Source of the DNA: Glaucostegus cemiculus
Lineage: Eukaryota
Direction: 5' to 3'
DNA length: 64,000 nt
NCBI GenBank assembly: GCA_976551045.1
Contig: CDPCPM010000057.1
Coordinates: 1,364,001 to 1,428,000, forward strand
Shown: positions 1,001-63,745 of the stretch, piece by piece
How positions within the stretch are numbered: position 1 is the stretch's first letter
How the letters are laid out: every line of letters starts with the position of its first letter
Notes under the pieces: model-generated
Database searches by the model: none
Seen by the model: only the letters and a program-made list of their open reading frames with translations
What the model was told of the DNA's origin: nothing
Made by a program: the position numbers and the translations under genes

Positions 1001-3384
1001 TTTTATTGACTTTCATGTACTAACACTTGTTAGCTCCATTATCTACTTTTAGACAGGCCAATGTAATTATATTGGGTTTTTTTCGATTGAATAAATCTGA
1101 CATAAATCTGGTTGATTTGACTAACTTGTCTGAGTCTCTGTGTGTTAGGATAAAATTGTAAGATTTTCTATGAACTATGTCTTCTCCCGGATGATGCTTG
1201 ATAGAGCTCCCATCAGAAGTGATTTAGTGAACAGTTACTATGTTTAGGAATGCTGCATTATGATGATCAAAGCTAAAAATCTGCATCATAGATTGACAAA
1301 TTTTCTGTCAACATCCATTATGGAATGAGTCCAAATTTTATCATTTACTTCATAACTAATTACATATATCTTAAGTGACAGAATGAAAACATATGCAGCT
1401 GTGTCTAATGGTTAAGGTTATTATTTGTGGAATAAACAGGACAGAACATCTGGCACTCCTACACCACATCTGGCTGGTTTGTCTTGTTTTTGTGGGTACT
1501 TCAAATTTAGTTGTTAAAAGTATTCTCTGATCTTTTGCACTCCACGTCCAAGTTCTAGATATTTGTGCGATATCGATGTATTCTCTTTTGGTTTCCTTAT
1601 TTTAAACCCTTTCGATTAGATCATTTTAAATGTTAATCTGCATGTTCCTCTTTTCATGCATAATATCTCAAAGTGCACTGTTCTCAAGTTTCTGCTCCTG
1701 TAACTGACCACTAGGAGCCATGCAAGAGCAGTTCTTGGCAATGCCCCTCTATTTGCCTTCCATTCATGCCACAAGGACAGAAATCAGGAATTTACAAACT
1801 AGGGAATAGAAGACATGAAAATTTAAGTTCTTGCCTCCCTCCAGCATACTTGCTTTGCAGGAATCTATGATGTGGAGACTTTCTGCCAGTTTAAATTATG
1901 TTGAATAGTGTTGTTGCTAAACCTTCAGATGTAAAGCTGATTTTCTGCCACAGTTCACCACAGTGCCATTCATAGCAAACAATGGAACCCTTTGCAAGGA
2001 ATGAGTTACATATTGTGCACCAGTGACATTGTTCTTCATCACATGATACTATAAGAACTTAAGAAATAGGAGCAGAAGTGAGCCTATTGGCCCCTCAATC
2101 TTGCACTACCATACAAAAGATCATGATTGATCCTTTACCTCAACTATATGTTCCAGCATGGCTCATGTCCTTGGATTCTCTCAAAAGTCTTTGAATTTAG
2201 CTTTGAACAAGGACCTTGGGATCTTTTGTTATTTTGTAAGTATAATATAAATGCACATACCTACTATATTTGAATGTACTCAATGGCTCTGCATCCATAG
2301 TCACCAAGGATACAGAATACCAATGATTCACAATTTTCTAAATGAAGGTAGTTTTCCTCATCCTGAGTTGCTTGTCCTTTCTATTAATGACTTGAAATCT
2401 TAGGACACTGGAGAAATAGGCTGACCAGTTCTAGTTATGCCTTCATCCTTTGCAAGGACATTGAATCTCAAATTTGTGATATATGGGCTGAGATGAGGGA
2501 ACAAAATGTAACAGTTCATTATTGTCATCAGGGTAGACTTGAAACAGAAAATGGAATCTCAAATTGGAATTCACTGTCCCTGTGTTTTACCATCTGGGCA
2601 TTGGTTATTTCACAGTGTTTTCTCTTTTAATGGGTGTATATTTGCACTATTTGGGTTCCATGAATCAGATCACAGAATGATGGCTCTGAATCCAAGATGA
2701 AATGGCAGGGTGGCTCACCTGGCTCTCTGAAATCAAAACAGCAGACTCTAGTACAGCATACAATGTAAGGGCTGCCCCAAGATTGGAATTGTTGGTGGTA
2801 TGTCACATGATATGTGGATGCCTGGATCTGAAGTTCATATGAACACCTTGAATACTCCCTGCTCTTTATCTTTTTGGAGGTGAAGTGGATACAGTACAAC
2901 TGGTGCCATATTACATTAAATCCCATCTCCCTTTCCTATTTAGAAAAAAAACATGTTGTCTTACTCTCCTTGAATCATTGATGACCACAAGATATTCATT
3001 GATCAAGCTATAATTTATGAAGGATGGAATTTGGTTGTTCTCCTTATTAGCAAGGCAACTTTGTATTTGCTTGAACGTACAGGTCCCACTGATGGAACTG
3101 ATAATGCCCTAGTTATGTTTTCTTTCTGCTTCCACTTTGTCCTCAGTGACTTCATTCAATGTTTTTACTATCGATCAGAAAAATCCTGCTTCATTCTTTG
3201 TTGTCAAGTGGTTCTGGCCTGATTCTTAAATTGAGAGGCATTCTGCCTAATTTGGTTCGAACAATATTCCTTTTAGTTGCCTTAGTATAGTTTTATTATG
3301 TATCCAGATACTTTCAACACAAATCTGGTTTCAAACAGCAGACCCTGCCACTGCTCCTATCTCAATCCGTTCTTCTAATCCTCT

Positions 3385-3970
3385 GAATGAAAAACACGAT
3401 GATGCTGGAGGAACTCAGCAGACCATGCAGTATCCATGGAGAAAAGCAGGCAGTCAACATTTCAGGTCAGGACCCTTCTTCAGGACTGAAGGTAAGAAAA
3501 GGCGAAGCCCAATATAAAGAAGGGAAAAGCAGAGCAGTGATAGGTGGACAAAAGAGGGGAGACAGGGTGGGCACAAGGTGGTGACAGGTAGATGCAGGTA
3601 AGAGATAGTGATAGGCAGGTGGGGGGGGGGAGGAGGGGAGCACAGATCCACAGGATGAGTCAAAGGTAAGGAGAGAAAGGAAAAGAAAGGTGTTAGATAA
3701 AAGAGGGATAGATTAGGAAAGGGAAGAATCATGGTAGGGGTGGGGTTATGGGGAAGGCGGGTGGGGTTACTTAAAGTGGGAGAATTCAGTGTTCATGCTT
3801 TTATGCTGAAAGATTCCAAGATAGAAAATGAGGTGCTAAAGATGCTAACGAGATCCTGAAGAAGGGTCCTGACCATCAGCTTTCCTCCACAGGTGCTGCC
3901 TGGCCTGCTGAGTTCCTCCAAAATCATAGTGTTTTTCATCTAGATTCCAGTATCTGCCATCCTTCATTTC
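3385..3970 (-). mobile_element. Penelope-like element remnant with inverted terminal arms and 14-bp TSD
   Basis: Inverted arms at about 3387-3486 and 3853-3939. Internal 3770-3837 resembles a PLE ORF C-terminus on the minus strand. Perfect direct repeat tcttctaatcctct at 3371-3384 and 3971-3984. Confidence 0.75.
3451..3488 (-). ncRNA. Minimal type I hammerhead ribozyme motif
   Basis: Minus strand CAGTC-CTGAAGA-AGG gtcctga CCT-GAAA-TG-TT-GACTG: stem I CAGTC/GACTG, core CUGANGA, stem II AGG/CCT, GAAA, GUU cleavage triplet. Activity untested. Confidence 0.65.
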
Positions 3971-4399
3971 TCTTCTAATCCTCTTCTTGAGTGAAGTCTA
4001 TTGTCAAGTCCGTCAAGTACGGTGAGATACAGGTACAATGAAAAACCTGCTTGCAACAGTATCACAGGCATATAGATTCAGAGAACACACATAACATAAA
4101 TTATATATAAATTATACAAGACAGTGAAGAAAAAGATTGTGCAAATCAAGACATTAGAGCAGAAACACAATTAGAAACATGAAACAAGAAAACCCAGAGC
4201 AAGAATTGAGAAGTGCGGAGGCAGGTAAGGCCTAACAGTCATTTTCATTCTGACAGGCGTTGGGAGCTGACCCCAATATGAGGACTGCAAAGTGATGAGG
4301 CACATCAGCCAATAAAAAGAAAGTAAGGTATAGTAGAGTAGCTATTTTGGAGTGGTCATTGTGAGAGTGATGTTTGAGTGGTAAGTGCTGAGATTTTGG

Positions 4400-6995
4400 C
4401 TCATGGGGCTTCAGTGAGAAGAGGCTGAGCAGAGGTATAGGTAAGGAACAGTAAGGTCTCTTTAACTTTATTTTTCACATAGCACAGTTGAGGAGGCAGT
4501 TAGGCTAGTGATATTATCCTCCTGCAAGATGTGGGAAATCAGGGAGACTTTCAGTGTCCCTGGTGACTACACCTGTGGGAAGTGCACCCGGCTGTAGCTC
4601 CTGGCTGACCACATAAAGGAACTGGAGCTGGATGCACTCAGGATCATCTGAGGTGCTGAGAGCATCACAGATAAGAGTTTTAGAGAGGTGATCATACCTA
4701 AGGTACAGGCATCAGATAGCTGCGTGAGCACTAGGAAAGGCAAAGGGGGAAGGCAGACAGTGCAGGGTTCTCCTGTGGCCATTCTCCTCACTAACAGATA
4801 TACCTCTTTGGATACTGTTGGAGAGGGTGGCTATTCAGGGGTAGCAGCAGCAGTCAATTCTGCTTGCACTGTGACCAGCTCTAAGGCTCAGCAGGAAAGT
4901 GTGCATTCCAACAGAGTGATAGTGATAGGAGGCTGACTAGTTAGGGGGACAGATTGGTACAAATGTCAGGTACAAAAGGGATGAGGTCCTGCAGAGTGAG
5001 TATAAGGAGTTAGGAAAGAAGTTATAGAGCAGGACCTTAAGGGTAGTGATCTCTGGATTACTCTTTGTGCCATGTGCTAGTGAGCGTAGGAATAGAAAGA
5101 TAGGCCAGATGAATGTGTTGCTGAAGAGCTGATGCAGGGCACAGGGGTTCAGATTATTGGATCATAGGGATCTCTTCTGGGGTAGAGGTGACCTGTACAA
5201 GAGGGACAGGTTGTAACTGAACTGGAGGGGGGTGGGGCAGTATCCTGGCAGGGAAATCTCTAGTTCTACTTGGGAGGGTTTAAACTAGTTTGGCAGCAGA
5301 GTGGGACACTGAGCAGTAGAGCGGCCAATGAGAAGAATGGGGTAAATACTGCAGCCAATAAGAGCAAGTTTTGTTGTCAGGAGCATGATAAAGGGAGAGG
5401 AAAGACTACTGGTTTAAACTGCATTTATTTCAATGCAAGAGGCTTAATAGGTAAGGCAGATGAACGCAGGGCATGGATTGGCTCTGGGGACATTATTGCC
5501 TTAATGGAAGCATGGCTGAGGGAAGGGCAGGACTGATAGCTCAGTGTTCAAAGATACAAATGTACAGTTGTGACAGAGATGCGGGTAACATAGGAGGGGG
5601 AGTTGCCTTATTGATGAAGGACAACATAACAACAGTGCTTAGAGAAGATATCCCTGGGGGAATCATCCAGTGATGCCATATGGGTAGAATTTAGAAATAA
5701 GAATGGGATGGTCACTTTAATGGCACTGCATTACATCCCCACTAATGGTCAGCAGGAGCATATATGCAAGTTGAGAGTTTGGAGATAGCTGTAAGAATAA
5801 TAGGGTAGTTTTAGTGGGAGATTTTAACTTCCCTAATATTGACTGGGCCATCAATAGTGCAAGGGGCTTGGACAGGGTGGAATTTGTTAAGTGTGTCCAA
5901 GAAAGGTTCCTTAATCAATATTTTGAGGGCCCTACCAGAGAGGGTAGCAACTCTAGACCTCCTCTTAGGGAACAAGATAGGGCAAGTGTCAGTAGGGGAG
6001 CACTTTGGGTCATATGGCCATGATTTTATTAATTTTTAAATAGTTACGGAGAAAGAAAGGACTGGTCCTAACCTGGGACAGGGCCAATTTTGGAGGCATT
6101 TGGTGGGATCTTGCAGGTATCAATTGGGTGAGACTGTTTCCTGGTAAAGTGGTGACTGACAAATTGGAGGCTTTTAAAAGTGTGATATCAAGAGTCCAAG
6201 GGCAGCATGTTCCTGATAGGGTAAAAGGCAAGGCTGGCAAGTTTAAGGAACCCTGGTTGATGAGAGCTACTGAGGCTCTCGTCAGGAAAAAGAAGGAGGC
6301 ATACATTGAGCTTAGACAATCAGGAACAAGAGAATCCCTCAATGACTATGAAGAGTGCAGGATTACACTTGAAGGAAATTAGGAGGGCAAGAAGAGGGTA
6401 TGAGATGGACCTTGAGGCAGGGTTAAGGAAAATCCCAAGAGATTCTATAGGTATATTATGAGAAAAAGGGTGGCAAGGAAAGGATTAAGGCCCCTTAAAA
6501 ATCAGCATCGTTGTCTATATGTAGAGCCACAGGAGATGGATGAGATTTTTAATGAATATTTCTCATCAGTTTTTACACAGAAAATGATGGATGCTAAAGA
6601 AATGAGGGAAATGGGTGATTGGCAAATGGCTTTCAATTCAGTTAAGTGTTATGTGTTGCATTTTAGGACATTAGATGAGGTTAGCACTTATACAGTGAAT
6701 GGTCAGGCCCTAGGGAGTGTTGTGGAACAGAGGGACTGAGGAGTACAAGTACATAGTTTGCTGAAAGCAGCATCACAGGTAGACGGTGTGATGAAGAAGG
6801 CATTTGACATGCTGGCCTTCATCAATCAGGGCATTGAGTACAGGAGATGGGACGTTATATTGCACAGAAAGTGGTTGCAGCAGGTACAATAAACGCATTC
6901 AAGACACTTGCTTAAGTATATGGATAGGAGGAGTTTAGAGTGATATGGACCAAATGTGGGCAAATGGGGCTAGTTTAGTGGGCACCTTTGGCAGA
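4400..6995 (+). mobile_element. CR1 LINE copy 1: ORF1 (Zn-finger plus esterase-like), APE endonuclease, internally deleted RT
   Basis: ORF1 SSCKMWEIRETFSVPGDYTCGKC and RVIVIG..LVRGTD. ORF2 CIYFNARGL and GDFNFPNIDW. Jumps to WQMAFNSVKC near 6615; 3' UTR near 6900-6995. Confidence 0.85.
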
Positions 6996-6999
6996 CTAG

Positions 7000-9900
7000 A
7001 TTGGGAGGGAGGTGGGACTCTGAGCAGGAGCAAGTCATGGGATAAAGCAGTAGCCAGGTTTAGTCATCAGGGTAGCCAGGGGCACAGTAAAGGCAGGGAA
7101 AGGAATACTCAGTTAAACTGCATTTATTTCAATGCACAAGGTTTAACAGGTAAGGTGGACAAACTCAGTGCGTGGATTGGCTCTGAGGACTGGGATGTTA
7201 TAGCCATAACTGAAACAAGGCTGAGGGAAGGGTAGGACTGGCAGTTCAATATTCCAGGATACAGATGCTACAGGTGTGACAGAGGTGCTGGTAAGCGAGG
7301 AGGGGGCATTGCCTTTTTGATAAGGGTGGATGTAACCGCAGTACTTAGAGATGACATTCTTGGGGGATCATCCAGTGACGCCATATGGGTAAAACTTAGA
7401 AACAAGTAGGGGACGGTCACTCTAGTGGGGCTATATTATAGATCCTCCAATAGTCAGTGGAAACTAGAGGAGCAGGTGTGTAGAGAAACTGTTCATAGTT
7501 GTAAGAATAATAGGGTTGTATTGGTAGGAGATTTTAATTTCCCCAGTACTGACTGGGCCGCCCAGAGTTTTAAGGGCCTGGATGGGGTGAAATTTGTGAA
7601 ATATGTCCAGGACAGTTTCCTGAGTCAATATATAGAGGGCCTACTCAGGAGGGCACAATACTGGACCTTCTCTGAAGGAATGAAGCAGGGCAGGTAACTG
7701 AAGTGGCAGGGAGCACCTTGGCTCTAGTGACCGTAATTCTATTAGTTTTAAGGTAGTGATGGAAAAGAATAGGACAGGTCTACAGGTTAGGGTCTTAAAC
7801 TGGGGCAGGGCTAATTCTAGGGGAACTAGGCATGATCTAGCAGAGCGCGATTGGGTGAGCCTGTTTGAAGGGAAAGGAACAAATGGCAAGTGGGAGGTTT
7901 TCAAGAGCCATCAGAACTGCGAACTCTCTCATTCCTCCATCTTCCTTGTTAACACTAAGAGATGCTAGGTGCACAGAAATGCACCAGTACTTTAAATGCC
8001 CGCCACCAGCCTGTTCACTTTAATAACAATTTATTTAATTACTGGCCGTATTTAATTTAACCTGCCGTATTTAATTTAATTTAAACTTCCGTAGTTTTTA
8101 ATGTTTTTCTTGTTCAGTGTGTCTGTGTGTCTCTGCTGTTTGCTATTTAATGGGACGAGCACCTGAGGAGGACGGTATCTCGCTCCTATGCATACTATGT
8201 ATGTATATGATTGTGACAATAAAACTGATCCTGATTCTGATTCTGAAGAGTGTGATATCAAGAGTCCAGAAGCAGCACGTTCCTGTTAGAGTGAAGGGGA
8301 AACTTGGTAAGTTTAGGGAACCTTGGCTGACGAGAGATATTGAGGCTCTGGTCAAGAAAAAGAAGGAACCCTACATTGGGTTTAGGAGGTCAGAGATGTG
8401 TGAATCCCTTGATGACTATAAAAAGATTAAGAATACCCTTAAAGGGGAAATCAAGAGGGCAAAGAGAGGGTATGAGATGGATCTGGCAGGTAGGGTTAAG
8501 GAAAATCCAAAGAGGTTCTATACTATATTAAGAGTAAAAGGGTGACTGGGGAGAAAGTAGGTCCCCTTAGAGATCAGCAAGGCCACCTATATTTCGAGCC
8601 ATAGGTGATGTGTGAGATTTTTAATGCATATTTCTGCTCGGTGTTTATTGAGGAGAAAATCATGATTGCTCAAGAGATAAGGGAAATACGTGGGGATGTT
8701 TTAAAGGATGTTCATATTACCAGCGAGGAGGTTTTTGCAGCCTTACAGTGCAGTAAGGTGGATACATCCCCAGGGCCTGACTGAGTGCATCCTCAGACTT
8801 TGTGGGAGGCTAGAGGAGAAATTGTGGAGGCCCTTGTGGAGATGCTCGCTTCCTCTTTAGCCACTGATGGAGTTCCCAAAGACTGGATGCTGGTTAATGT
8901 TGCTCCGTTGTTTAAGAAGGGTAGCAAGGACAAGCCAGGGAACTACAGGTTGATCAGCCTGACGTCAGCAATGGGGAAGTTACTGGAGGGAATACTGAGG
9001 GACAGGATCTACCTGCATTTGAATGGACAGAGTCTGATTAGGAGGAGTCAGCATGGCTTTGTGCATGGGAAGTCATGTTTGACAAACCTTTTAGAGTTTT
9101 TTGAAGAGGTAAGCAAAAAGGTACATGAGGGTAGGGTAGTGGATGTTGTAATTTGGACTTTGGCAAGGCCTTTGACAGGGTCCCACATGGTAGGCTGGTC
9201 TGGAAGGTTAGGCCCCTTGGAATCCAGGGAGAGCTAGTTAGGTGGATTCAAACTTGACTTGGAGGAAGGAAACAGAGGGTGGTTGTTTAAGGTTGTTTCT
9301 CAGAATGGAGGATGGTGACTAGTGTTGTGCCGCAGGGATCAGTGTTGGGACCCTTATTATTCATTATTTATATAAATGATTCGGATGCGAATGCACAAGG
9401 TTTGATGAGTAAATTTGCAGGTGATATGAAATTAGGAGGTGTCGTTGATAGTGAAGAATATCGTAGATTATTGTAGATTACAGGGGAATCTTGATCAGTT
9501 AGGGAAGTGGGCCGAGGAGTGGCAAATGGATTTCAATACAGGTAAGTGTGAGGTGATGCATTTTGGAAAGTCAAACCAGCGTAGGACTTATACTATGAAT
9601 GGTAGGGCACGAGGGAGTGTAATGGAACAGAGGGACCGAGGAGTACAAGTGCATAGTTCATTGAAAGTGGTGTCACAGGTGGACAGGGTGGTGACAAAGG
9701 TATTAGCATGCTGGCTTTCATCGGTCAGGGCATTGAATATAGGAGTTGGGACATTATGTTGCAGTTGTATAAGTTGTTGTTGATACTGCACTTGGAGTAC
9801 TGTGTAGTTTTGATCACTGTGTTATAGGATAAATGAGGTTAAACTGGAAAGAGCGCAGAGAAGATTTACGAGTATGTTGCCAGGACTAGAGGGTCTGACT

Positions 9901-10374: not shown

Positions 10375-10720
10375 AAATTGAATTACCTGAATTTGCAGAA
10401 TTCAATATTAAAAGTCCATAAGATAAAACATGCCCAGATGGAAGATGATGTGCTGTTCCTCAAACACATTGGCATACACTAAAACTGCATAAGAGGCCAC
10501 AGGCAGATGGGTCAGAGTGTGAGGTGGATGGATAGTTAAAAGGTCAGGCAATAGAAAGCTCTGAGTCACCCCTGCAGAAGTTCCTCAAAGCAGTCATCTA
10601 ATTAGTATTTGGTTTCTCTGATGTAAAGGACACATAAATGCAGTACACTTGATTGGAAGAAGTGCAAGTAAATCACTGCTTTGCTTGGAAGGACGGTTTG
10701 TCTTCCTTGTTAAAGAAAAC
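10375..10720 (-). mobile_element. Penelope-like ORF C-terminal (GIY-YIG region) fragment, degraded
   Basis: gaattcaatatt...atgcccagatggaagatgatgtgctgttcctc is the reverse complement of an EEQHxIFHLG-type motif; similar to 38020-38200 and 63750-64000. Confidence 0.55.
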
Positions 10721-11524: not shown

Positions 11525-12075
11525 TGCAAAAAAAAAGAATTTGCCAGTAACTCAGCAGGTCAGGCAGCACTTCTGGAGAGAGAAACAGCATCAAAGTTTC
11601 AAGATCAAGGATTCTTCATCAGAAATGGAAAAATGAGAGAAAGCAAGTTTTTCCTTACGTTTGTCAAGAGGGCGAGGGACAGAAAGATAAAAGGGAATGG
11701 CTGTGACAGGGCAGAGATGAAGGATACTCAGGCGGCTAAATTGCAGAGTACATCCATTTAATCTGTGGGAGTGACCCTGATCTTTCAGTTACCTATCACT
11801 TTATTTCTGTGTTCCACTTCTAGTCTCTCTGTCTTTGGATTCCTGCACCGATCTAACCAGTGCAATGTAATCTTGAGGAATTGTGCCTTAACTTCACATT
11901 TAGATACATAGTGGGATTCACAGCATGATATTGATTTAAAAAATTTCAGTTAAGCAGCCTTTCCTGTTGCTTTCAGACTGGCTATTTCTGATCAAAAGTC
12001 CTCCACCTGTAACATTAATTCAGTTTTTCTCTTCCCACATCTGCCTGGTTTGTTGGGTATTTCCAGCTTTCCCTT
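11525..12075. mobile_element. Penelope-like remnant with inverted arms and degenerate hammerhead (11589-11627)
   Basis: Arm ctcagcaggtcaggcagca; CTGATGA...GAAA on the minus strand; 11830-11950 resembles the PLE ORF end on the plus strand. Confidence 0.55.
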
Positions 12076-21950: not shown

Positions 21951-23285
21951 ATGCACTCTGCACTATATCACTTAGAGAAGAAGGATTCATACTGCCGACT
22001 GCTATTCATCGACTTCAGCTCCGCTTTCAATACCATCATCCCGCAACAGCTAATCAGGAAGTTGAGCGCTCTGGGCATTAACTCTCCTCTCTGCAACTGG
22101 ATACTGGATTTTCTAACTTGCAGGCCGCAGTCAGTCAAAATTGGTGAAACACCTCAAGCACCATCACACTGAGCACTGGCTCCCCACAGGGTTGTGTGCT
22201 CAGTCCGCTCCTGTTCACCTTGTTGACTCACAACTGTGAGGCCAGATCCAGCTCCAACCACATTGTTAAATTTGCCGATGACACGACAGTGGTGGGTCTT
22301 GTCACGAATGACGATGAGTCGGACTACAGAGAGGAGGTGAAACAACTAGCCGTGTGGTGCTATGACAACAACCTCTCCTTGAATGTGGATAAAACCAAGG
22401 AGATGATAGTGGATTTTAGGAGGGGTCACCGTGTGCACGCCCCGCTGACCATCAACGGGTCTGCTGTGGAACAAGTACGCAGCACCAAGTTCCTCTGGGT
22501 GCACATCACCAACGACCTGACCTGGTCCACTAACATTACGGCCCTCACGAAGAAAGCTCAGAAACGCCTCTACTTCCTGCGGAGACTGAGGAAAGTGTAC
22601 CCCCATCCCTCCATCATGAAAACCTTCTATAGGGGGACCATTGAGAGCATCCTAACTCATTGTATCACTGTTTGGTTTGGAAGCTGCTCAGCTGCTGGGC
22701 GGAAGTCCCTCCAGAAGATAGTTAGGGCTGCGGAGTGGATCATAGGTGTCTCGCTTCCATCCCTCGCAGACATATACAAAGACCGTTGTGTGAGGAAGAG
22801 GAAAAGCATAATGGCCGACCCTTCTCACCCCTCCCACCACCTCTTCACAATTTTGCCATCAGGGAGGAGGCTTAAATGTATCAGGGCAAGAACGACAAGG
22901 CTGAACAATAGATTCTTTCCGCAAGCCATCAGAACTGCAAACTCTCTCATCCCTCCATCTTCCTTTGTTAACACTAAGAGATGCTAGGTGCACAGAAATG
23001 CACCAGCACTTTAAATGCCGACACCAGCCCGTTCACTTTAATAACTATTTATTTATTTACCGGCCATTTTTAATTTAATCTGCGTACTAATTTAATTTTA
23101 ACTTCCGTAGCTTTTAATGTTTAATTTTTTTTAATGTTTATTCTGTCGAGTGTGTATGTGTGTCTCTGTTGGTTGTTATGTTATTTTTATGGGACGAGCA
23201 CCTGAGGAGGACGGTATCTCGCTCCTATGCATACTATGTATGTACATGGTTGTGACAATAAAACTGATTCTGATTCTGATTCTGA
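21951..23285 (+). mobile_element. Young 5'-truncated Rex1/Babar-like LINE in NTMT2 intron 2
   Basis: ORFs 21879..22172 and 22196..22987 ([12 protein letters not shown]; [11 protein letters not shown]; [10 protein letters not shown]), split by a 1-bp deletion near 22147; 3' UTR ends gacaataaaa(ctgatt)n. Confidence 0.92.
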
Positions 23286-28917: not shown

Positions 28918-30398
28918 TGCAGGTGCGGTGCCGGAGGACTGGAGGGTAGCTCATGTTGTTCCATTGTTTAAAAAAAGGCTCTAAAAGTAAACCAGATAAT
29001 TACAGGCCAGCGAGCCTGACATCAGTGGTAGGTAAATTATTGGAAGGTGTTCTGAGAGATTGGGTATACAAATATTTGGACGGCCGAGGGCTGATTAAGG
29101 ATAGTCAGCATGGCTTTGTGCTTGGCAGATCACTTTTAACGAATCTTGTAGAGTTTTTCAAGGAGGTTCCCAAGAAAGTAGATGAAGGAAAGGCTGTGGA
29201 TGTTGTCTACATGGACTTTAGTAAGACCTTTGACAAGGTCCCACATGGGAGGTTAGTTCAGAAGGTTCAGTCACTAGGTATCCATGGAGAGGTTGTAAAC
29301 TGTATTCGAAACTGGCTGTGTGGGAGAAGACAGAGAGTGATAGTGGATGATTGTTTCTCAGACTGGAGGCTTGTAACTAGTGGTGTGCCTCAGGGATCTG
29401 TGCTGGGGCCATTGTTGTTTGTTGTCTATATCAATGATCTAGATGTTAATGTGGTAAACTGGATTGGCAAGTTTGCTGATGACACTAAGATTGGAGGCAT
29501 TGTGGACAGCAAGGAAGACTTTCAAAGCTTGCAGAGGGTTCTGGGCCAGCTGGTAAAAATGGGCCAGAAAAGGGCAGATGGAATTTAATGCAGACAAGTG
29601 TGAGGTGTTGCATTTTGGAAAGACAAATCAAGGTAGGACATACACAATAAATGGTAGGGCACTGAGGAATGCGGAGGAATAAAGGGATCTGGGAGTTCAG
29701 ATACATAATCCCCTGAAAGTGGCGTCACAGGTAGACAGTGTTGTAAAAAAGGCTTTTGGCATCCTGGCATTCATAAATCGAAGTATTGAGTATAGGAGCT
29801 GGGATGTTATGGTGAGGTTGTATAAGACATTGGTGAAGCCAAATCTGGAGTATTGTGTGCAGTTCTGGTCACCTAGCTATAGGGAAGATATCAGTAAGAT
29901 TGACAAGAGTGCAGAGAAGATTTACTAAAATGTTGCCAGGTCTTCAGGAGTTGAGTTGCTGGGAAAGATTGAACAGGTCAGGACTTTATTCCTTGGCGTG
30001 CAGAAGAATGAAGGGAGATTTGATTTCCCTTCATTCAAGGAAGAATGTGAGGGGTATAGACAGAGTAAATGCAAGTAGGCTCTTTCCACCTAGATTAGGA
30101 GAGATAAGTACAAGAGGACATGGCTTTAGGGTAAAAGGGGAAAGATTTAGGGAGAACATTTAGGAGGAAGTTCTTCACTCAGAGAGTGGTGGGAGTGTGG
30201 AATGAGCTGCCATCTGACGTGGTAAATGTGGGCTCACTCTTAAGTTTTAAGAATAAATTGGATAGATACATGGATGGGAGAGGTCTGGAGGGTTATGGAC
30301 TGGGTGCAGGTCAGTGGGACTAGCAGAAAAATGTTTCGGCACAGACTAGAAGGGCTGAATAGCCTGTTTTCTGTGCTGTAGTGTTCTATGATTCTATA
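28918..30398 (+). mobile_element. 5'-truncated CR1 LINE in NTMT2 intron 1
   Basis: ORF 28953..29588 NYRPASLTSVVGK...YMDFSKTFDKVPH...[13 protein letters not shown]...FADDTKIGG; 3' tail tgtgctgtagtgttctatgattcta. Confidence 0.93.
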
Positions 30399-31699: not shown

Positions 31700-32570
31700 A
31701 CAAAATCCTGTTATCACAGTGAAAGTGCATTCATTGGGTCCTGTGGCACTACCACCATTGGTAAATGGGGCAGATTGCAATCAGATCTAGCAACTCAGGT
31801 CTGGGCATGCATGAGGCATTGCAGGGCATCAACAGCAGCAGAACTGTATGCAACCACAATCAGCAACCTCATGGCCCGGCAAATGGGAACATGAGAGAAA
31901 AAACTCTACCAGAGTCACTAGCTCCTGACCTCATTTCAGCTGTCGTCCAAACGTAGACAAGAAGTGAAGTGAGAGTAACTGCCCTTGACATCAAGGGAGC
32001 ATTTGATCAATTATCAAGGAAACCTGGCTAAACTGGGGTCCTTGGTTGAAATCCTACCTAGCACAAAGGAAGATGGTTATTATGGTTGGAGGTCAATCAT
32101 CTCATCCACGGGACATCTGTGCTGGAGTTCCTCAGGGTAGTGCCCTCAGCCCAATCATCTACAGCTGCTTCATCAATGACTTTCCTTCATTCATAAGGTC
32201 AAAAGTAGGGACATTCGCTGATGATTGCACAATGTTAAGCACCATTTGCAACTTCTTAGATAATGAAGCAGACACATATAAATGCATCAGGACCTGGACA
32301 ATATCTAGGCAAGTAACATTTGTGCCATGTAAGTGTCAGGCAGTGACTCCATCCAACAAAACAAAATCCATCTTCCACCCCCTGACATTGAATGGCATTA
32401 CTATTACTGAATCCCCTTCAGGTCAGGAGTGTGATGGAATACTCTCCACTTGTCTGGATGAGTGCAGCTTCAACAACACTCAAGAAGCTCAGCACCATAC
32501 AGGACAGAGTAGCCCACTTAATAAGCACCCCATCCACAACCATTCACACACTCCGCTACCAACGCACAGC
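31700..32570 (+). mobile_element. CR1-clade LINE RT fragment (second family)
   Basis: ORF 32046..32594 SYLAQRKMV...GVPQGSALSP...FINDFPS...FADDCT. Confidence 0.8.
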
Positions 32571-33590
32571 TACAGAGAAAGTGCATTGCAATAAGGTGCA
32601 AGGTCACAACAAGGTAGATCGTGAGGTCAGAGTCCATCTCATTGTATAAGGGAACCATTCAGTAGTCTTATCACAGTGGGATAGAAGCTGTCCTTAAGTC
32701 TGGTGGTATGTGCCCTCAGGCTCCTGCATCTTCTACCTGATGGAAGAGGAGAGAAGAGAGAATGACCTGGATAGGTGGCATCTTTGATTATGCTGGCTGC
32801 TTCGCCCAGGCAGCGAGAGGTAAAGACAGAGTCCAAGGAGGGGAGGCTGGTGTCCGTGACACACTGGGCTGTGTCCACAACTCTCTGCAGTTTCTTGCGG
32901 TCCTGGGCAGAGCAGTTGCCATACTAAGCCGTGATGCATCCAGATAGATGCTTTCTGTGGTGCATCGATAAAAGTTGGTGAGCGTCAAAGGGGACATACC
33001 GAATTTCTTTTGCCTCCTGAGGAAGTAGAGGCGCTGGTGAGCTTTCTTGACTGTGGCATTCACTTGATTTGACCAGGACAGGCTATTGGTGATGTTCACT
33101 CCCAGGAACTTGAAGCTCTCAACCCTCTCGACCTCAGCACCGTTGATGTAGACAGGTGCTTTACACTGCCCCCTTTCCTGAAGTCAATGACCAGCTCTTT
33201 TGTTGACATTGAGGGAAAGGTTGTTGTCATGACACCATGCCACTAAGCTCTCCATCTTCTTCCTGTACTCTGACTCATCGTTGTTTGAGATACGGCCTAC
33301 AACAGTGGTATCATCTGCAAACTTGTAGATGGAGTTAGAGCAGAACCTGGCCACACAGTCAGGAGTATATAGGGAATAGAGTAGAGAGCTGAGGATGCAG
33401 CCTTGTGGGGCACCAGTGCTGAGACTAATCCTGCCAGAGGTATTGCCGACTATCCTCACTGATTGCAGTCTGTTTATTAGAAAGTCAAGGATCCAGTTAC
33501 AGAGGGAGGTGTTGAGTCCCAGGTCTCAGAGTTTGGTGATGAGTTTGCTTGGGATTAGAGTATTGAAGGCAGAGCTGTAGTCAATGAACA
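32570..33590 (-). mobile_element. Rex1/Babar-like LINE 3' part
   Basis: ORFs 33184..33459 ([17 protein letters not shown]...[10 protein letters not shown]), 32788..33099 and 32639..32878. Confidence 0.9.
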
Positions 33591-33905: not shown

Positions 33906-35168
33906 AAAATTGGAGTGTGAAATGCCCAAGGGTAACAGTTATTTTGTTTTGCATATCTAACATCTGTCTAGACATAAAGTTGAGTGGGGCCAAGTTTTTC
34001 TGAACCACACAATCCAACTTAAAACATTATTGAAAATTGTTAACTTGATATAAGTTGCAAGAATTAAGTGATTTTTGTTTCAGGTTGTTTGAATGCCTGC
34101 TGCTCTAAAGCATATATGACCCTTAAGAGACAGAAAAGCATTGACTAGCATTCAGCAGAAGCTTGGAAACCACCAGTGTAGTTTTAAACACTTGTGCATA
34201 GCCTGTGCTGTTGCAACCACCCATGCAGAAGCAGGCTTTCACAATGTCAATGAAACCTGGTTTTGTGAGTACTTATGTGAGCAAGTCTCAGACTGGATCG
34301 GAGAACCTCTTTGACTTTCCTTCAAGAACTCACTCTACAAAATGTCAGTCTAAGTTGCACTGACTGATTTAAAAACAATCAGTTTTGGGTATTTCGGAAA
34401 AGATCCCAAGGATTAGGCAAGGATTCCTCAAAATAAACTGTTTTAACCCTCCTACCCACCCCAAAAATAATGACATCTTTGTTTTATTGACAGTATTTCC
34501 AGATATTTAAGATCTCAAAAATTGCCGTAATTGTTATGCATTCTTGCTGTTTTTATGGTTTTGGTGGTGGGTCATAGTGTAGAGTTGTCATAGTTACAAA
34601 CCATCTATATTTTTAGACAATAAACCAATGGAGACATTGGCAGGATCACTTATTTTTATGTGAAAATAAGAAGGGTTGACTCTCAAGACATTATCAGCAT
34701 TTTAAAAAATACTTTCTGAAGCTGTTCCCAGATCTAGAAATACCCATTTGATTCATTCGATTTTACTTTCCTTGACTGTTACTTATGTAATGCACCTTTG
34801 TGAACTGAATTTCTTGCATATTGGCAGGATCTCATGCCAATATATTTAATGTAACAATAAAAAAATCAGAAATATTACTTTTAACTTTACCAGTCTTGAA
34901 GGGCCTTTTCTAGACATTTTTAATTTGGAAGTGGAATTTAACTTATATTCAATAGACTCCATCACATTGTAAATTGCACCCAAGCTTTCCTTGGCCACAC
35001 ACAAAGCCAAAGAATAAGGTGAATCTTATTGGTTTGTGTAATTGGTGTAAAGACCTAACCTATGCTGTTGTACACCATGCCATTTACAGGTTGTATATTA
35101 TTTGTTAGTCAATATTTCTGACTGATCCACAAATGATTCTATTGAAAACTATACATTTTGTGCAATTA

Positions 35169-35338
35169 AAAACAAAAAAATGCTGGAAATACTCAGCAGG
35201 TCATGCAGCATCTGTAGAACAAGAAGCAGTCAATGTTCTAGTTCCTTTTTCCACAGATGCTGCCCGACTTGCTGAATTTTATCCAGTATTTTTTATTTTT
35301 GCTTCAGATTTCCATTATTTGCAATTTTTTTGATTTTT
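35169..35338. mobile_element. Short fold-back element with about 18-bp TSD
   Basis: tgctggaaatactcagcaggtcatgcagcatctgt...acagatgctgcccgacttgctgaattttatccagta; flanks atacattttgtgcaatta (35151-35168) and atatattttgagcaatta (35339-35356). Confidence 0.7.
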
Positions 35339-39931: not shown

Positions 39932-40157
39932 CAAAAGACAAGCTGCTGGAAGAACTCTGAGTCAGGCTGCAAGTGTGGAAATAAAGGGATAGTCAATGTT
40001 TCAGGTTGAGACTCTGCATCAGAACTGAGAGTGCAGAGGGGAGGTAGCCTATGTAAAGAGGTTGTTACCTCCAATAGATGCTGCCTGACACGCTGAGTTC
40101 CTCTCGCAGCTTGCTTTTTGCTTCAGATCCCAGCATCTTCAATCTCTTATGTCTCCA
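39932..40157. mobile_element. Short fold-back element with 14-bp TSD and degenerate hammerhead (39991-40026)
   Basis: Arms aagctgctggaagaactctgagtcaggctgca and tgctgcctgacacgctgagttcctctcgcagctt; flanks aattaatcgttaag (39918-39931) and aattaatcattaag (40158-40171). Confidence 0.72.
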
Positions 40158-44739: not shown

Positions 44740-45720
44740 ATGGGACTGGTCAACAATGGCAAGGGCAGCACTTACTGTCCATCCCTTCACCGACCTTGAG
44801 AAGGTGATGGTGAGCTGCCTACTTGAACCACTGTCATCCTCATGGTGAAGGTATTCACACAGTAGGGTAGAGTTGGGCATTCCAGTATCTGGATTCATTT
44901 GCAGTGAAGGGACAATATATTTTCAAACTGGAGGAAAATTTGCAGGTGGTGGTGTTCCCATTGATCTGCCACCTTTGCCCTTTCTGGGTGCTTGAGGTTA
45001 TAGGTCTGGGAGATGTTGTTGAAGTTACTTTGGTGAGTTAGTGCATACCATTTTGTAAACGGTACACAGTGCAGCCAGGCAGTGGAGGGTGTGAATGCTG
45101 AGGATGATGAAATTGGAGCCAATCAAGTGGTGTGCTCTGTCCTGAATGGAGTTGAGCTTCAAAAAGAAACTGGAGATGCTGGAAATCTGAATAGAACATG
45201 CTAGAAAATCTCAGTAGGTCAGGCAGTATCTCTAGAATGAGAGGCAGTTAACATTTCAGAATCTATCTTGGTCGCCCCACTCTTTATGTAGTGGACCCAG
45301 TTAAGTTTCGGGCCAAAGGTGATTTTCAGGATATTGATGGTGTAGCATACAATAATGGTAATGCTGTAGAATGTCAAGGGGAAATGGGTAGATTCTTCTT
45401 GGAAATAGTTATTGTCTGGCATTTGTATGGCAAGCTGTTACATGCCACATCATTCCATTCTGATTGCTATCTAAGTCTTGCTGCATTCAGGCACGAACTA
45501 CTACAATTGTCCGAGAGTTTCAAATGGATTGGAACATTGTGCAAACATCAGCAACAATCCTGCCATGGTAAAAGGAAAGTCACAGATGAAGTAGCTAAGA
45601 TTGTTAGACTGTGCCTAAGGAACTAGTGCACTGACGTCTTAGGACTAACCTTCAACAACCACACCATATGCTTTTGTGCTGGGTATAACTCAAGTCAGTG
45701 GAGAGTTTTTCCCTTCATTA
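44740..45720 (-). mobile_element. CR1-clade LINE 3' part, same family as 31700-32570
   Basis: ORF 45219..45422 PLTFYSITI parallels PLTLNGITI in ORF 32046; interrupted by a fold-back arm at 45165-45260. Confidence 0.6.
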
Positions 45721-54584: not shown

Positions 54585-56277
54585 GACGTAAGAAATCTCC
54601 CAGAGGTACGGATGGACAAAAGGCAGAGAGTGATGGAGGAACTGAAGTGGATTGACATTAGGAAAGAAATGGTGATGGGTAGACTAATGGGGCTGAAGGC
54701 TGACAAATCCCCAGGTCCGGATGGTCTGCATCCCAGGGTACTGAAGGAGGTGGCTCTAGAAATTGTGGGTGCATTGGTGATCATTTTCCGACATTCCCTA
54801 TATTCTGGGTCAGTTCCTGAGGATTGGAGAATGGCCAATGTTATCCCACTTTTTAAGAAAGAAAGGAGGGAGGGAGAAAACGGGGAACTATCGTCTGGTT
54901 AGCCTGATGTCTGTGGTGGGGAAGATGCTAGAGTCCATTATTAAGGATGAAATAGCGGCATATTTGGATAGCAATGATAGGATTGGGTCGAGTCAACATG
55001 GATTTACTAAGGGCAAATCGTGCTTGACTAATCTACTGGAGTTTTTTGAGGATGTAACCAGGAAAATAGACGAGGGAGATTCGGTGGATGTTGTGTACCT
55101 CGACTTTCAGAAGGCATTTGATAAGGTGCCGCACAGGAGATTGGTGGGTAAAATGAGGGCTCATGGAATTGGGGGGAGGGTATTAACTTGGATAGAAAAC
55201 TGGTTGGCAGATAGGAAACAAAGGGTAGGGGTGAATGGATATTTCTCGGAATGGCAGGCCGTGACTAGTGGGGTGCCGCAGGGCTCAGTGCTGGGACCGC
55301 AGCTGTTTACGATATATGTTAATGATTTAGACGAAGGCATTGAGAATAACATTAGCAAGTTTGCTGATGATACAAAGTTGGGTGGCAGTGCGACATGAGT
55401 AGAGGAAGTTAGGAGGATTCAAGGTGACTTGGATAGGTTGGGTGAGTGGGCAGATACTTGGCAGATGAAGTTTAATGTGGATAAGTGTGAGGTTATCCAC
55501 TTTGGGAGCAGGAACAGGAAGGCGGATTATTATCTGAATGGTGTGGAGTTAGGTAAAGGGGAGGTACAAAGGGATCTAGGAGTCCTTGTTCATCAGTTGC
55601 TGAAAGTGAATGAGCAAGTGCAGCAGGCGGTGATGAAGGCTAATGGAATGTTGGCCTGTATTACGAGGGGAATTGAGTACAAGAGCAAAGAGATTCCTTT
55701 GCAATTGTTCAGGGCCCTGGTGAGACCGCCCCTGGAGTATTGTGTACAGTTTTGGTCTCCGGGGTTAAGGAAGGGTATCCTGGCTATAGAGGGCATGCAG
55801 CGTAGGTTTACGAGGTTAATTCCAGGGATGTCGGGACTGTCTTATGCAGAGAGGTTGGATAGACTGGGATTGTACATGCTGGAATTGAGAAGATTGAGAG
55901 GGGATCTGATTGAAACATACAAGATTGTTAAGGGATTGGACAAGACAGAGACAGGAAATATGTTCCAGATGTTGGGGAAGTCCAGGACCAGAGAGCATGA
56001 TTTAAGAATAAGGGGTAGGCCATTTAGGACAGAGGTGGAAAAACAACTTCTCCCAGCAGGTTGTGAGTCTGTGGAATGCACTGCCTCAGAGGGTAGTGGA
56101 GGCCAATTCTCTGGGCACTTTTAAGAAGGAGCTAGATAGGTTTCTTATAGATAGGGGAATCAAGGGATATGGGGACAAGGCAGGAATGGGATATTGAGTG
56201 TTGAGGATCAGCCATGATCTCAAAATGGCGGAGCAGACTCGAAGGGCCAAATGGTCTACTTCTGCTCCTATTGTCTA
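54585..56277 (+). mobile_element. 5'-truncated CR1 LINE with 7-bp TSD in KIFAP3 intron 1
   Basis: ORFs 54612..54902, 54838..55398 ([22 protein letters not shown]) and 55429..56124; ttgttca at 54578-54584 and 56278-56284. Confidence 0.93.
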
Positions 56278-57641: not shown

Positions 57642-57850
57642 TCTATAAAAACAGAAAATGCTGGCACTCAGCAGGTCAGATAGTGTCTCTGGAAAGAGAA
57701 ATAGAGCTAACTGTTCATGTCTCAGCACTTTCATAAGACTCTAGCATTGTTTATCTTTCCACACGTGCTGCCTGACCTGCTGAATACTTCCAGCATTTTC
57801 TGTTTTTATTTCAGATTTCGAATATCTGTATTTATTTTTTGATTTTCAGT
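57642..57850. mobile_element. Short fold-back element
   Basis: aaaacagaaaatgctggcactcagcaggtcag and ctgacctgctgaatacttccagcattttctgtttt arms; ttgtaact on both sides. Confidence 0.7.
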
Positions 57851-60144: not shown

Positions 60145-60409
60145 TTAAAACAAGGTGCTGGAAACATTCAGCAGGTTGGGCAGTATCTGTGGAAAGAGAA
60201 AATGTTGGTATTTCAAGGTGAAGAGCTTTCATCAGAACTGGGAAAGGAAGAGACAAGTTAGCTTTAAATTGCCAGAGATTGTGGGGGAGAGATGAATGTG
60301 AAAAGGGCTTATCTCTGAGGGTGAGGCCAGGGTTACCGTGGAAATAATTTGTCAATGTTGTCCCCGGTGAATAGCTTAATGAGTAAAATTAGAGCTGTTA
60401 AAACTGCAG
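60145..60409 (-). mobile_element. Penelope-like element, first segment (pLTR arm with degenerate hammerhead 60204-60238)
   Basis: gctggaaacattcagcaggttgggcagtatctgtggaaagaga arm; minus strand GTT CTGATGA AAG..CTT GAAA; appears to continue at 61505-61665 and 63750-64000. Confidence 0.55.
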
Positions 60410-61669: not shown

Positions 61670-63745
61670 GAATAAACAAGCCTTTTTCAAGCTGGATGAA
61701 TGTAACTAGTGGATGCCCCAAGAATCAGTTCTTGGCCCTCAATTATTCACTCATTATATTAATGACTTGGAGGATGGGGTAGCATTTAAGGTTTCCAAAG
61801 GTGTTTGTGTGAGTGGAGAGTGGGTGGGGCGCATGCTGTGTTGAGGAAATCAGAATCAGTTTTATTGTCACAACCATATACATACATGGTATGCATAGGA
61901 GCGAGATACCGTCCTCCTCAGGTGCTCGTCCCATAAAAAAAGAATAACATAACAACCAACAGAGAGACACATACACACTTGGCAGAATACACAGTACAGA
62001 ACATTACACATTAGAAGCTATGGAGATTGAAATTGAATTATTACGCAGATTAAATTAAAAGTGGCCAGTAAATAAATAAATAGATCTTAAAGTGAACGGG
62101 CTGGTGTCGGCATTTAAAGTGCTGGTGCATTTCTGTACACCTAGCATCTCTTAGTGTTAACAAAGGAAGATGGAGGGATGAGTGAGTTTGCAGTTCTGAT
62201 GGCTTGCAGAAAGAAACTATTGTTCAGCCTGGACGTTCTTGCCCTGATACATTTAAGCCTCCTCCCCGATGGCAAAATTGTGAAGAGGTGGTGGGAGGGA
62301 TGAGAAGGGTCGGCCATTATGCTTTTTGTCTTCCTCACACAACGGTCTTTGTATATGTCTGCGAGGGATGGAAGCGAGACACCTATGATCCACTCCGCAG
62401 CCCTAACTATCTTCTGGAGGGACTTCCGCCCAGCAGCTGAGCAGCTTCCAAACCAAACAGTGATACATTGAGTTAGGATGCTCTCAATGGTCCCCCTGTA
62501 GAAGGATTTCATGACTGAGGGATGTGGGTACGCTTTCCTCAGTCTCCGCCGGAAGTAGAGGCGTTTCTGAGCCTTCTTCGTGAGGGCTGTAATGTTAGTG
62601 GACCAGGTCAGGTCGTCGGTGATGTGCACCCCCAGGAACTTGGTGCTGCGTACTTGTTCCACAGCAGACCCGTTGATGGTCAGCGGGGCGTGCACACGAT
62701 GGCCCCTCCTAAAATCCACTATCATCTCCTTGGTTTTATCCACATTCAAGGAGAGGTTGTTGTCATGGCACCACACGGCTAGTTGTTTCACCTCCTCTCT
62801 GTAGTCCGACTCATCGTCATTCGTGACAAGACCCACCACTGTCGTGTCATCGGCAAATTTAACAATGCGGTTGGAGCTGAATCTGGCCTCACAGTCGTGG
62901 GTCAACAAGGTGAACAGGAGCGGACTGAGCACACAACCCTGAGGGGAGCCAGTGCTCAGTGTGATGGTGCTTGAGGTGTTTTCACCAATTTTGACTGACT
63001 GCGGCCTGCAAGTTAGAAAATCCAGTATCCAGTCCAAATTTGGACTCTGCAACAGGATAGGTTGAGAAAACTTGACAAATGGAGTCTAATGTGGGAAAGT
63101 ATGAGGTCATGCACTCGGGTAAGAGATAGAGATTTAAACAGAGAGATTGCAAAATAGTGGAGTGCAGAAGGATCTAAATGTTCTTGTGCATGAAACACAA
63201 AATAGGCAGATAGGTGCAGCAAGTAGTTAGGAGGCCAAATAACATATTGGCCATAATAGCAAGCGGGTTGTAGTTTAGAAGTAGAGAAATATTGCAGTGT
63301 ATTGATGAGGCTGCAATTGGAGTACTATGTATAATTTTGGTCCCATTATTTACGAGTGGATATACTGACGTTGGTGACAGTCCAGAAGAGTAGGCTATTT
63401 TCTGGAATGAGGATTGTCATATCATGAACAGCTGAAGAAGTTGGATCTGTATTTTTTTTTGGAGTTAAGAATGAGTGGTGATCTTGTTAAAACATAAGTG
63501 GGCATGAGAGGGTAGATAGTTTCACTCGTGGGAGCGTCTTGAATAAAAATGTAGTTAAAAGATAAGGGGGTGATATGTAGGAATTTCCTCTCACAGGATG
63601 GTGAATCTCTGGAATTCTCTGCCCTGCAGAGCTGTTGAGGAAATATTTAAAGAGGAGATGGATACATTTTTGAAAGATCAGGGAAGTGAATACAAAGGGA
63701 GTTGAGGCGGTTGCCTACTCCTATTTTCTTGTGTTGTATTTTCAG
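61670..63745 (+). mobile_element. Old CR1 LINE 3' part, split by a young Rex1-like copy
   Basis: tgtaactagtggatgccccaagaatcagttcttggccctcaattattcac..attaatgacttgg before the insertion; RT C-terminus and 3' UTR after 63040. Confidence 0.7.
61851..63035 (-). mobile_element. Young 5'-truncated Rex1/Babar-like LINE with uninterrupted RT C-terminal ORF
   Basis: ORF 62141..63052 (303 aa, no stops) is nearly identical to ORF 22196..22987; ctgattctgat tail; AAAT at 61847-61850 and 63036-63039. Confidence 0.93.

Follow-up and report, generated by a model that had tools for sequence, protein, structure and literature searches.

Minimal hammerhead ribozymes have been reported as motif pairs on opposite strands, 100-700 bp apart, and, at thousands of copies, in fish as well as in coelacanth and frog, sharks or rays not being named in the accessible portions of that paper (PMC4209133). 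Insertions of EN+ Penelope-like elements (PLEs) are described as carrying an inverted 5'-truncated pseudo-LTR (pLTR), a one-sided tail of 30-40 bp and a target-site duplication (TSD), along with TATA and initiator-like (Inr) motifs in the pLTR (PMC3846280, PMC8557442). A TATA plus Inr-like motif was noted in one such pLTR (PMC3846280), a TATA-less internal promoter was described for Penelope of D. virilis (PMC2377424), and a CX2-5CxxC linker between the reverse transcriptase (RT) and endonuclease (EN) domains was given as a mark of the Neptune clade (PMC8557442). For PAc, a Poseidon element of the green anole, the protein was found in vitro to cut and extend both strands, with two start sites which bound the tail and which do not differ between the strands, and uncut RNA was used, the hammerhead being unnecessary for insertion (Frangieh et al. 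2024, PMC11167929).

The window analysed here is a stretch of 64,000 nucleotides from Glaucostegus cemiculus. The unit found at its positions 3371-3984 is probably a single old EN+ PLE insertion, in which two truncated hammerhead-bearing ends stand head to head within a 14-bp TSD; most plausibly, each of the two nicks of a staggered cut primed its own reverse transcription. Its features are collected in Table 1.

Table 1. Positions of features of the head-to-head PLE unit, counted along the 64,000-nt window
Feature	Position	Strand	Basis or remark
Left TSD copy	3371..3384	+	14 bp
Left arm: 5'-truncated PLE 3' end, terminating at the family's tail-less 3' end	3387..3837	-	family comparison
PLE ORF C-terminus after the GIY-YIG domain: final 22 codons and stop	3765..3835	-	translation matches longer family copies
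TATA-like box of the pLTR, 31 nt upstream of the Inr-like A	3513..3518	-	TATATA in the family, 1 change in the window copy; putative function
Minimal type I hammerhead motif	3451..3488	-	core sequence and family comparison
Stem I 5' strand	3484..3488	-	sequence
Inr-like A, predicted transcription start	3487	-	predicted from the 5'-end pile-up
Hammerhead core CTGAAGA	3483-3477	-	
Unpaired A	3476	-	
Stem II	3475-3472 with 3467-3464	-	
GAAA	3463-3460	-	
Decayed palindrome	3459-3458	-	
GUU triplet	ending at 3456	-	
Hammerhead cut site	between 3456 and 3455	-	predicted
CpG-decay changes in the hammerhead	3464, 3459, 3452	-	
Filler between the arms, 16 nt	3838..3853	no strand	no source found; longest match to the family only 7 nt
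Right arm: second pLTR-end copy with broken hammerhead, first base 2 nt past the Inr-like A	3854..3939	+	family alignment
PLE tail, 33 nt, right arm only	3940..3972	+	two discrete family 3' ends
Right TSD copy, first 2 nt common to the tail end	3971..3984	+	perfect 14-bp direct repeat

The sequence-only reading of this DNA had described two inverted arms of about 100 bp inside a perfect 14-bp direct repeat, and the repeat is present exactly as described. The mirrored ends are also real, a repeat search pairing 3382-3456 with 3870-3944 (79%) and 3465-3485 with 3854-3874 (100%), but the arms differ in extent from that description: the left one is 450 nt long, with only its last ~100 nt mirrored in the right one, and the right one, which spans 3854-3972 overall (119 nt), reaches 33 nt further at its 3' end. 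Read on the minus strand from 3837 to 3387, the left arm runs through the ORF end, 3' UTR, TATA-like box, hammerhead and tail-less end, and matches the family majority sequence at 86% over -376 to +69 relative to the cleavage site. In the pLTR part, non-CpG divergence from the majority amounts to 9.7% for the right arm and 3.3% for the left, and the CpG observed/expected ratio of the window is 0.24. The right-arm hammerhead keeps CTGAAGA and has lost GAAA, as had been noticed, and the loss of both GAAA and the triplet was traced to a deletion of 13 nt that has a short direct repeat at either side. One reading of the breakpoint places it at the cut site, and the deletion was considered as a trace of cleavage, yet the short direct repeats at the breakpoints and its rarity (11 exact genome matches vs 4,642 for the intact sequence) mean that slippage suffices. 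The idea that the right arm represents a second stem I variant was likewise rejected, the alignment placing it in the same family.

A 36-letter pattern located downstream of the hammerhead had 4,914 exact matches in the 2.85-Gb genome and 0 in a reversed control, and for a hammerhead pattern of 33 letters, degenerate at three CpG sites, the numbers were 4,642 and 0, respectively. The best 60 matches to both arms align as a single family whose 3' ends fall sharply at two points separated by 33 nt; in the window, each arm has a different one of the two. Longer copies extend ~3 kb upstream into a single ORF, of which the window keeps only the codons listed in Table 1, with a YIDD-type RT, a C-x4-C-x2-C linker and, C-terminally, a GIY-YIG endonuclease; Pfam matches in these copies (GIY-YIG PF01541, E 2e-4 and 5e-3; RVT_1, E 3e-5) all score below the curated cut-offs, and one of the four ORF pieces scanned was without a match. 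These RT and GIY-YIG remnants bear out the Penelope-like origin proposed for the unit, and on sequence grounds the family is classified as an EN+ PLE. The linker separating RT from EN would make it Neptune-like, although the same linker is common to Nematis and is insufficient alone. About 3 kb of the element was assembled, in which no copy joining the tail to the ORF start was found, and a PDB search returned nothing relevant. An older hammerhead family had 574 matches in the genome. At least two hammerhead-bearing families other than the main one were seen (loci L250-L269 and L235, and the RNA reads), an older one having U as the likely source base at 11.1 and a 4-bp stem I, and another, abundant among the RNA reads, having a GUC triplet and a 5-bp stem I.

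The 38-mer singled out on the minus strand at 3451-3488, with its core, GAAA and GUU, reads as claimed, and its assignment as a minimal type I hammerhead of a pLTR agrees with the features held by the majority of 336 family copies (a set that includes loci picked by hammerhead patterns), namely a 3-bp stem I, CUGAAGA, one unpaired A, a stem II opened by G10.1-C11.1, GAAA, a CG palindrome and GUU. The CUGANGA/GAAA core is kept in this majority sequence. It was also correctly proposed that the TG of the window is a CpG-decayed CG palindrome, CG being the family majority (C 65% and T 34% at the first position, G 72% and A 26% at the second); C11.1 is C in 63% of the copies. The window copy was, however, less well formed than described. 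Its three CpG changes have turned the conserved G10.1-C11.1 pair into G-U (3464), abolished the palindrome, now UG (3459), and supplied the fourth pair of stem I (3452). Two of the five stem I pairs originally drawn are no family feature, and the AGG/CCT pairing of stem II is not the one predicted for the window copy itself, which in isolation folds into stems I and II with stem II in the G10.1 register (G-U, G-C, G-C, U-A after an unpaired A); the CpG changes at 3464 and 3452 created, respectively, the A-U pair and the fourth pair of stem I, which are therefore accidents of decay. The predicted stability of the 38-mer is no greater than that of shuffled sequences (z -0.96), and a covariance-model check with Rfam over 2500-5000 gave no hammerhead match at E<=10, and the window motif therefore rests on core sequence and family comparison. 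Between families the inner stem I pair differs, U-A in the older and C-G in the main one (U-A 13, C-G 6, U-G 4 and other 1 of 24), this compensatory change being a single event and the stem II letters being fixed by the search pattern.

To locate the 5' ends of the copies, we used 150 ends that came from 90 loci and had their anchor downstream of the ribozyme; of 164 distinct pieces, we omitted the 14 that begin downstream of +21. The results showed that 17 of the 81 copies reaching -33 to -28 stop there, where the rate seen downstream would give 5.3 (p 4e-5), for a single interval chosen after the data were seen, and that further upstream the stop rate per nt drops from 0.012 to 0.003-0.005. 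No excess was observed at the hammerhead cleavage site (7 seen vs 8.5 expected), a negative outcome for this indirect test of the self-cleavage proposed for the ancestral RNA. In the family sequence the A of TCAGT is at -31, and TATATA sits 31 nt upstream of it. Transcription therefore likely begins on stem I of the hammerhead at a TATA/Inr-like site, a start site read only from motifs and copy ends, and the integrated cDNAs likely derive mostly from uncut RNA; such a start would account for the retention of no more than three pairs in stem I. A cap-templated extra G before the start A was looked for by hand in the first 100 of 246 matches and was rejected, the preceding base being C in 41, A in 26, G in 21 and T in 12. 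Some family 5' ends at -21 to -16 from the cleavage site were noticed in passing.

The layout of the window unit was then compared with 427 pieces carrying a 3' end, from 269 loci plus the window, among which 66 distinct head-to-head pairs were found, the window's included; 26 of the 66 come from loci picked because they resembled the window or matched hammerhead patterns, and piece ends were taken from BLAST with a possible error of a few bases. A TSD of 9-16 bp encloses 25 of the 66 pairs, in comparison to 0, 0 and 1 of 66 in shifted controls and to only 4 of 58 solo copies, and it is 14 bp long in 8 of the 25. After two older-family pairs were dropped, 64 pairs remained for the end rule: 53 are tailed at one end and tail-less at the other, 3 are tailed at both, 1 at neither, and 7 have an intermediate end, so that one of each was found in 53 of 57 (p 6e-12), and all 25 TSD-bearing pairs are of this kind. 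Among the 53 one-tail pairs, the arm extending further 5' is the tail-less one in 26, as in the window, and the tailed one in 18, and the two are within 10 nt in 9. At two loci (L219 and L122) two same-strand tailed ends are followed by an identical 56 nt, which suggests that an older copy took in a short one and that the duplication was long. At another (L233), a long ORF-bearing piece borders on its upstream side on an inverted tailed end from a different hammerhead family, and the two may be a pair of mixed families.

The published explanation for such inverted ends is a self-priming fold-back, in which an antisense RNA hairpin is copied with two tailed arms and the endonuclease trims one tail upon insertion (PMC3846280, PMC8557442). 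We consider it unlikely here. Later trimming would indeed leave one tailed end with either arm free to be the longer, the arms overlap by microhomology at 18 of 64 junctions, and certain junctions fall inside the hammerhead stems. Paired arms also share 25 derived changes, or 0.0046 per nt vs 0.0019 for permuted partners (0 of 500 permutations), the excess stemming mostly from three long pairs. On the other hand, the hairpin would need loops of 350 nt in the window and of more than 2 kb at locus L215, three or more filler bases are found at 32 of 64 junctions, the ends cluster at a sense-strand start motif, and the in vitro reaction runs on sense RNA with two start sites (PMC11167929). In the 26 of 53 pairs, the window's included, where the tail-less arm is the one extending further 5', neither arm can be a copy of the other, and the name fold-back given to the window unit is probably wrong, neither of its arms containing the other. 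The arms further differ in 16 of 51 pairs, the window among them, at a C-to-A variant, not of the CpG-decay type, located +58 after the cleavage site (3398 and 3928 in the window). This variant occurs in 28% of copies, in comparison to 1-3% at other CpG cytosines, and the adjacent G is decayed in 1 of 83 vs 37 of 201; it behaves as if it had already been present at insertion and may reflect either a single-base variant of the source or a hot spot of copying, no clear linked second marker having been found among the family copies. Even less probable, and by a wide measure, are two independent insertions, the second beside or within the first; the abundance of the family and the greater divergence of the right arm would be in line with them, but both arms lie inside one perfect 14-bp duplication, an enclosing TSD is found in 25 of the 66 pairs, and the strict head-to-head layout with its one-tail rule would not be expected.

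Two other alternatives concern the hammerhead and the start of the transcript. That the window copy is a working or host-retained ribozyme is suggested by the presence of every core base and by the predicted folding of the isolated 38-mer into stems I and II, but it is highly improbable. At their age, roughly half of the family copies still have the core in any case (103 of 195, the set having been chosen in part for the core), and in 60 motif-blind copies 24 of 562 core positions (4.3%) were changed, in comparison to 57 of 847 in the stems (6.7%) and 73 of 1367 in the flanks (5.3%), with core G12 being A in 16 of 54 copies; since the core decays as fast as the flanks, there appears to be no post-insertion selection on the hammerhead. 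In the window the palindrome and G10.1-C11.1 are decayed, a same-strand partner is absent, and whole-element folding predicts hammerhead stem probabilities near 0, the motif pairing with the opposite arm in a hairpin. PLE hammerheads reportedly cleave as dimers, as a 2017 paper is said to describe, and the predicted dimer energy is -2.8 kcal/mol for the window copy vs -12.3 for the family majority, neither dimer being the most stable fold. For RNA beginning at the predicted start, a hairpin with downstream pyrimidines is predicted to outcompete the hammerhead fold in both majority and window sequences, although it was not favoured in one of two natural copies folded. Three RNA runs with the same species label contained thousands of family reads on both strands, with no pile of starts or ends, and zero reads on the unique left flank of the window insertion; as the reads are family-wide and very few are 99% alike, they say nothing on the window locus beyond that empty flank. 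Judged from these models, the genomic copy in the window is likely inert and would no longer cut itself. As for the 5'-end pile-up, its cause could be splicing rather than a transcription start, with the 3' splice site placed on stem I as it is in Penelope of D. virilis (PMC4209133): a polypyrimidine tract and CAG end exactly before the first base of the right arm, the CAG on the 5' strand of stem I is also compatible with an acceptor, and the same tract exists in the older family. We nevertheless doubt it, given that no upstream exon is shared among 30 copies starting there, that the window's 16-nt filler taken as a spliced leader has only 4 genome matches with unrelated flanks, and that 11 of the 17 ends are located no further downstream than -31.

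Priming at both nicks is thus favoured over a simple fold-back by the one-tail rule and the non-nested arms, and it is the best account of the pair counts together with the two-strand, two-start-site result obtained in vitro (PMC11167929). In this mechanism, the PLE protein would cut both target strands ~14 nt apart; one 3' end would prime at the tail-less site and copy 445 nt into the ORF end to give the left arm, while the other would prime at the tail site and run off near the 5' end of the RNA to give the right arm, and the two cDNAs would be joined with filler. The 5' end of the source RNA would be near the TATA/Inr start on the first stem of the ribozyme, its minimal hammerhead would need a partner RNA or the protein of the element to cut, and most copies would have been made from uncut RNA. 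Where both arms extend past the predicted start, as in 11 pairs, one monomeric RNA cannot supply both, and tandem transcripts or two RNAs are needed. Counting against priming at both nicks are the 39 of 64 pairs with no TSD scored and the derived changes shared between arms, which also fit a common template. A more specific version, which we put forward tentatively and hold somewhat less likely than not to be correct in full, is that the protein acts as a dimer, priming at the tail site on one strand and at the tail-less site on the other, whereby tail, inverted arm and 14-bp TSD would form one signature, and the short arms would be run-off copies of uncut RNA starting on stem I, with the competing hairpin silencing the ribozyme.

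Elsewhere in the window, shorter and more decayed pieces, 70-88% similar over 30-80 nt to the ends of this PLE or to the end of its ORF, were seen at 35164-35237, 40065-40155, 57758-57828, 11546-11578, 10382-10461, 45198-45259 and 821-851, those at 35164-35237 and 57758-57828 matching in both orientations and perhaps being small inverted pairs. Degenerate CTGAYGA...GAAA motifs on the minus strand near 60235, 50237 and 11622 resemble hammerheads of older PLE families. RVT_1 matched 7 of the 11 long open frames (366-833, 8785-9237, 22148-22987, 28950-29588, 32007-32594, 54781-55398 and 62141-63085), apparently LINE remnants, and no host gene was identified among the window frames of at least 150 aa.

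The PLE architecture and the hammerhead motif are already published, and the locus in the window is an ordinary decayed repeat; the value of the family lies in its use as a fossil record, which bears on how inverted PLE ends are formed and on the role of the hammerhead. A two-sided priming account of these ends was not found in print in a limited literature search, with supplements outside its scope. The counts (one tail per pair, non-nested arms, and ends at the start motif rather than at the cut site) give specific predictions for an in vitro PLE system.

Similar to the minimal hammerheads of PMC4209133, the family has the CUGANGA/GAAA core, an unpaired base between 9 and 10.1, G10.1-C11.1, palindromic 15.2-16.2 and no stem III, and it differs from them in a stem I of only 3 bp and a stem II of 4-5 bp, with CpG decay in the window copy. 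The non-LTR retrozymes (bioRxiv 10.64898/2026.07.22.740005) likewise carry a type I hammerhead of PLE pLTR origin, whereas they are tandem non-coding repeats; the window unit, with inverted, non-tandem arms and an ORF remnant, was not taken as one of them. With the EN+ PLEs of PMC3846280 and PMC8557442 the family shares the head-to-head layout, the one-ended tail, the TSD, and the TATA and Inr-like motif, while its TSD is ~14 bp in comparison to 8-10 bp in rotifer PLEs, and the layout ascribed there to antisense self-priming and endonuclease resolution is, by the counts in this family, better fitted by two primings. The family resembles PAc in having two 3' ends, or start sites, which bound the tail and in lacking ends at the cleavage site, and unlike PAc, a Poseidon element, it has the cysteine linker of Neptune and Nematis. 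Another difference is that each site is coupled to one end in the family pairs, a rule left unexplained by the PAc assay because the start site there is equal on both strands (PMC11167929).
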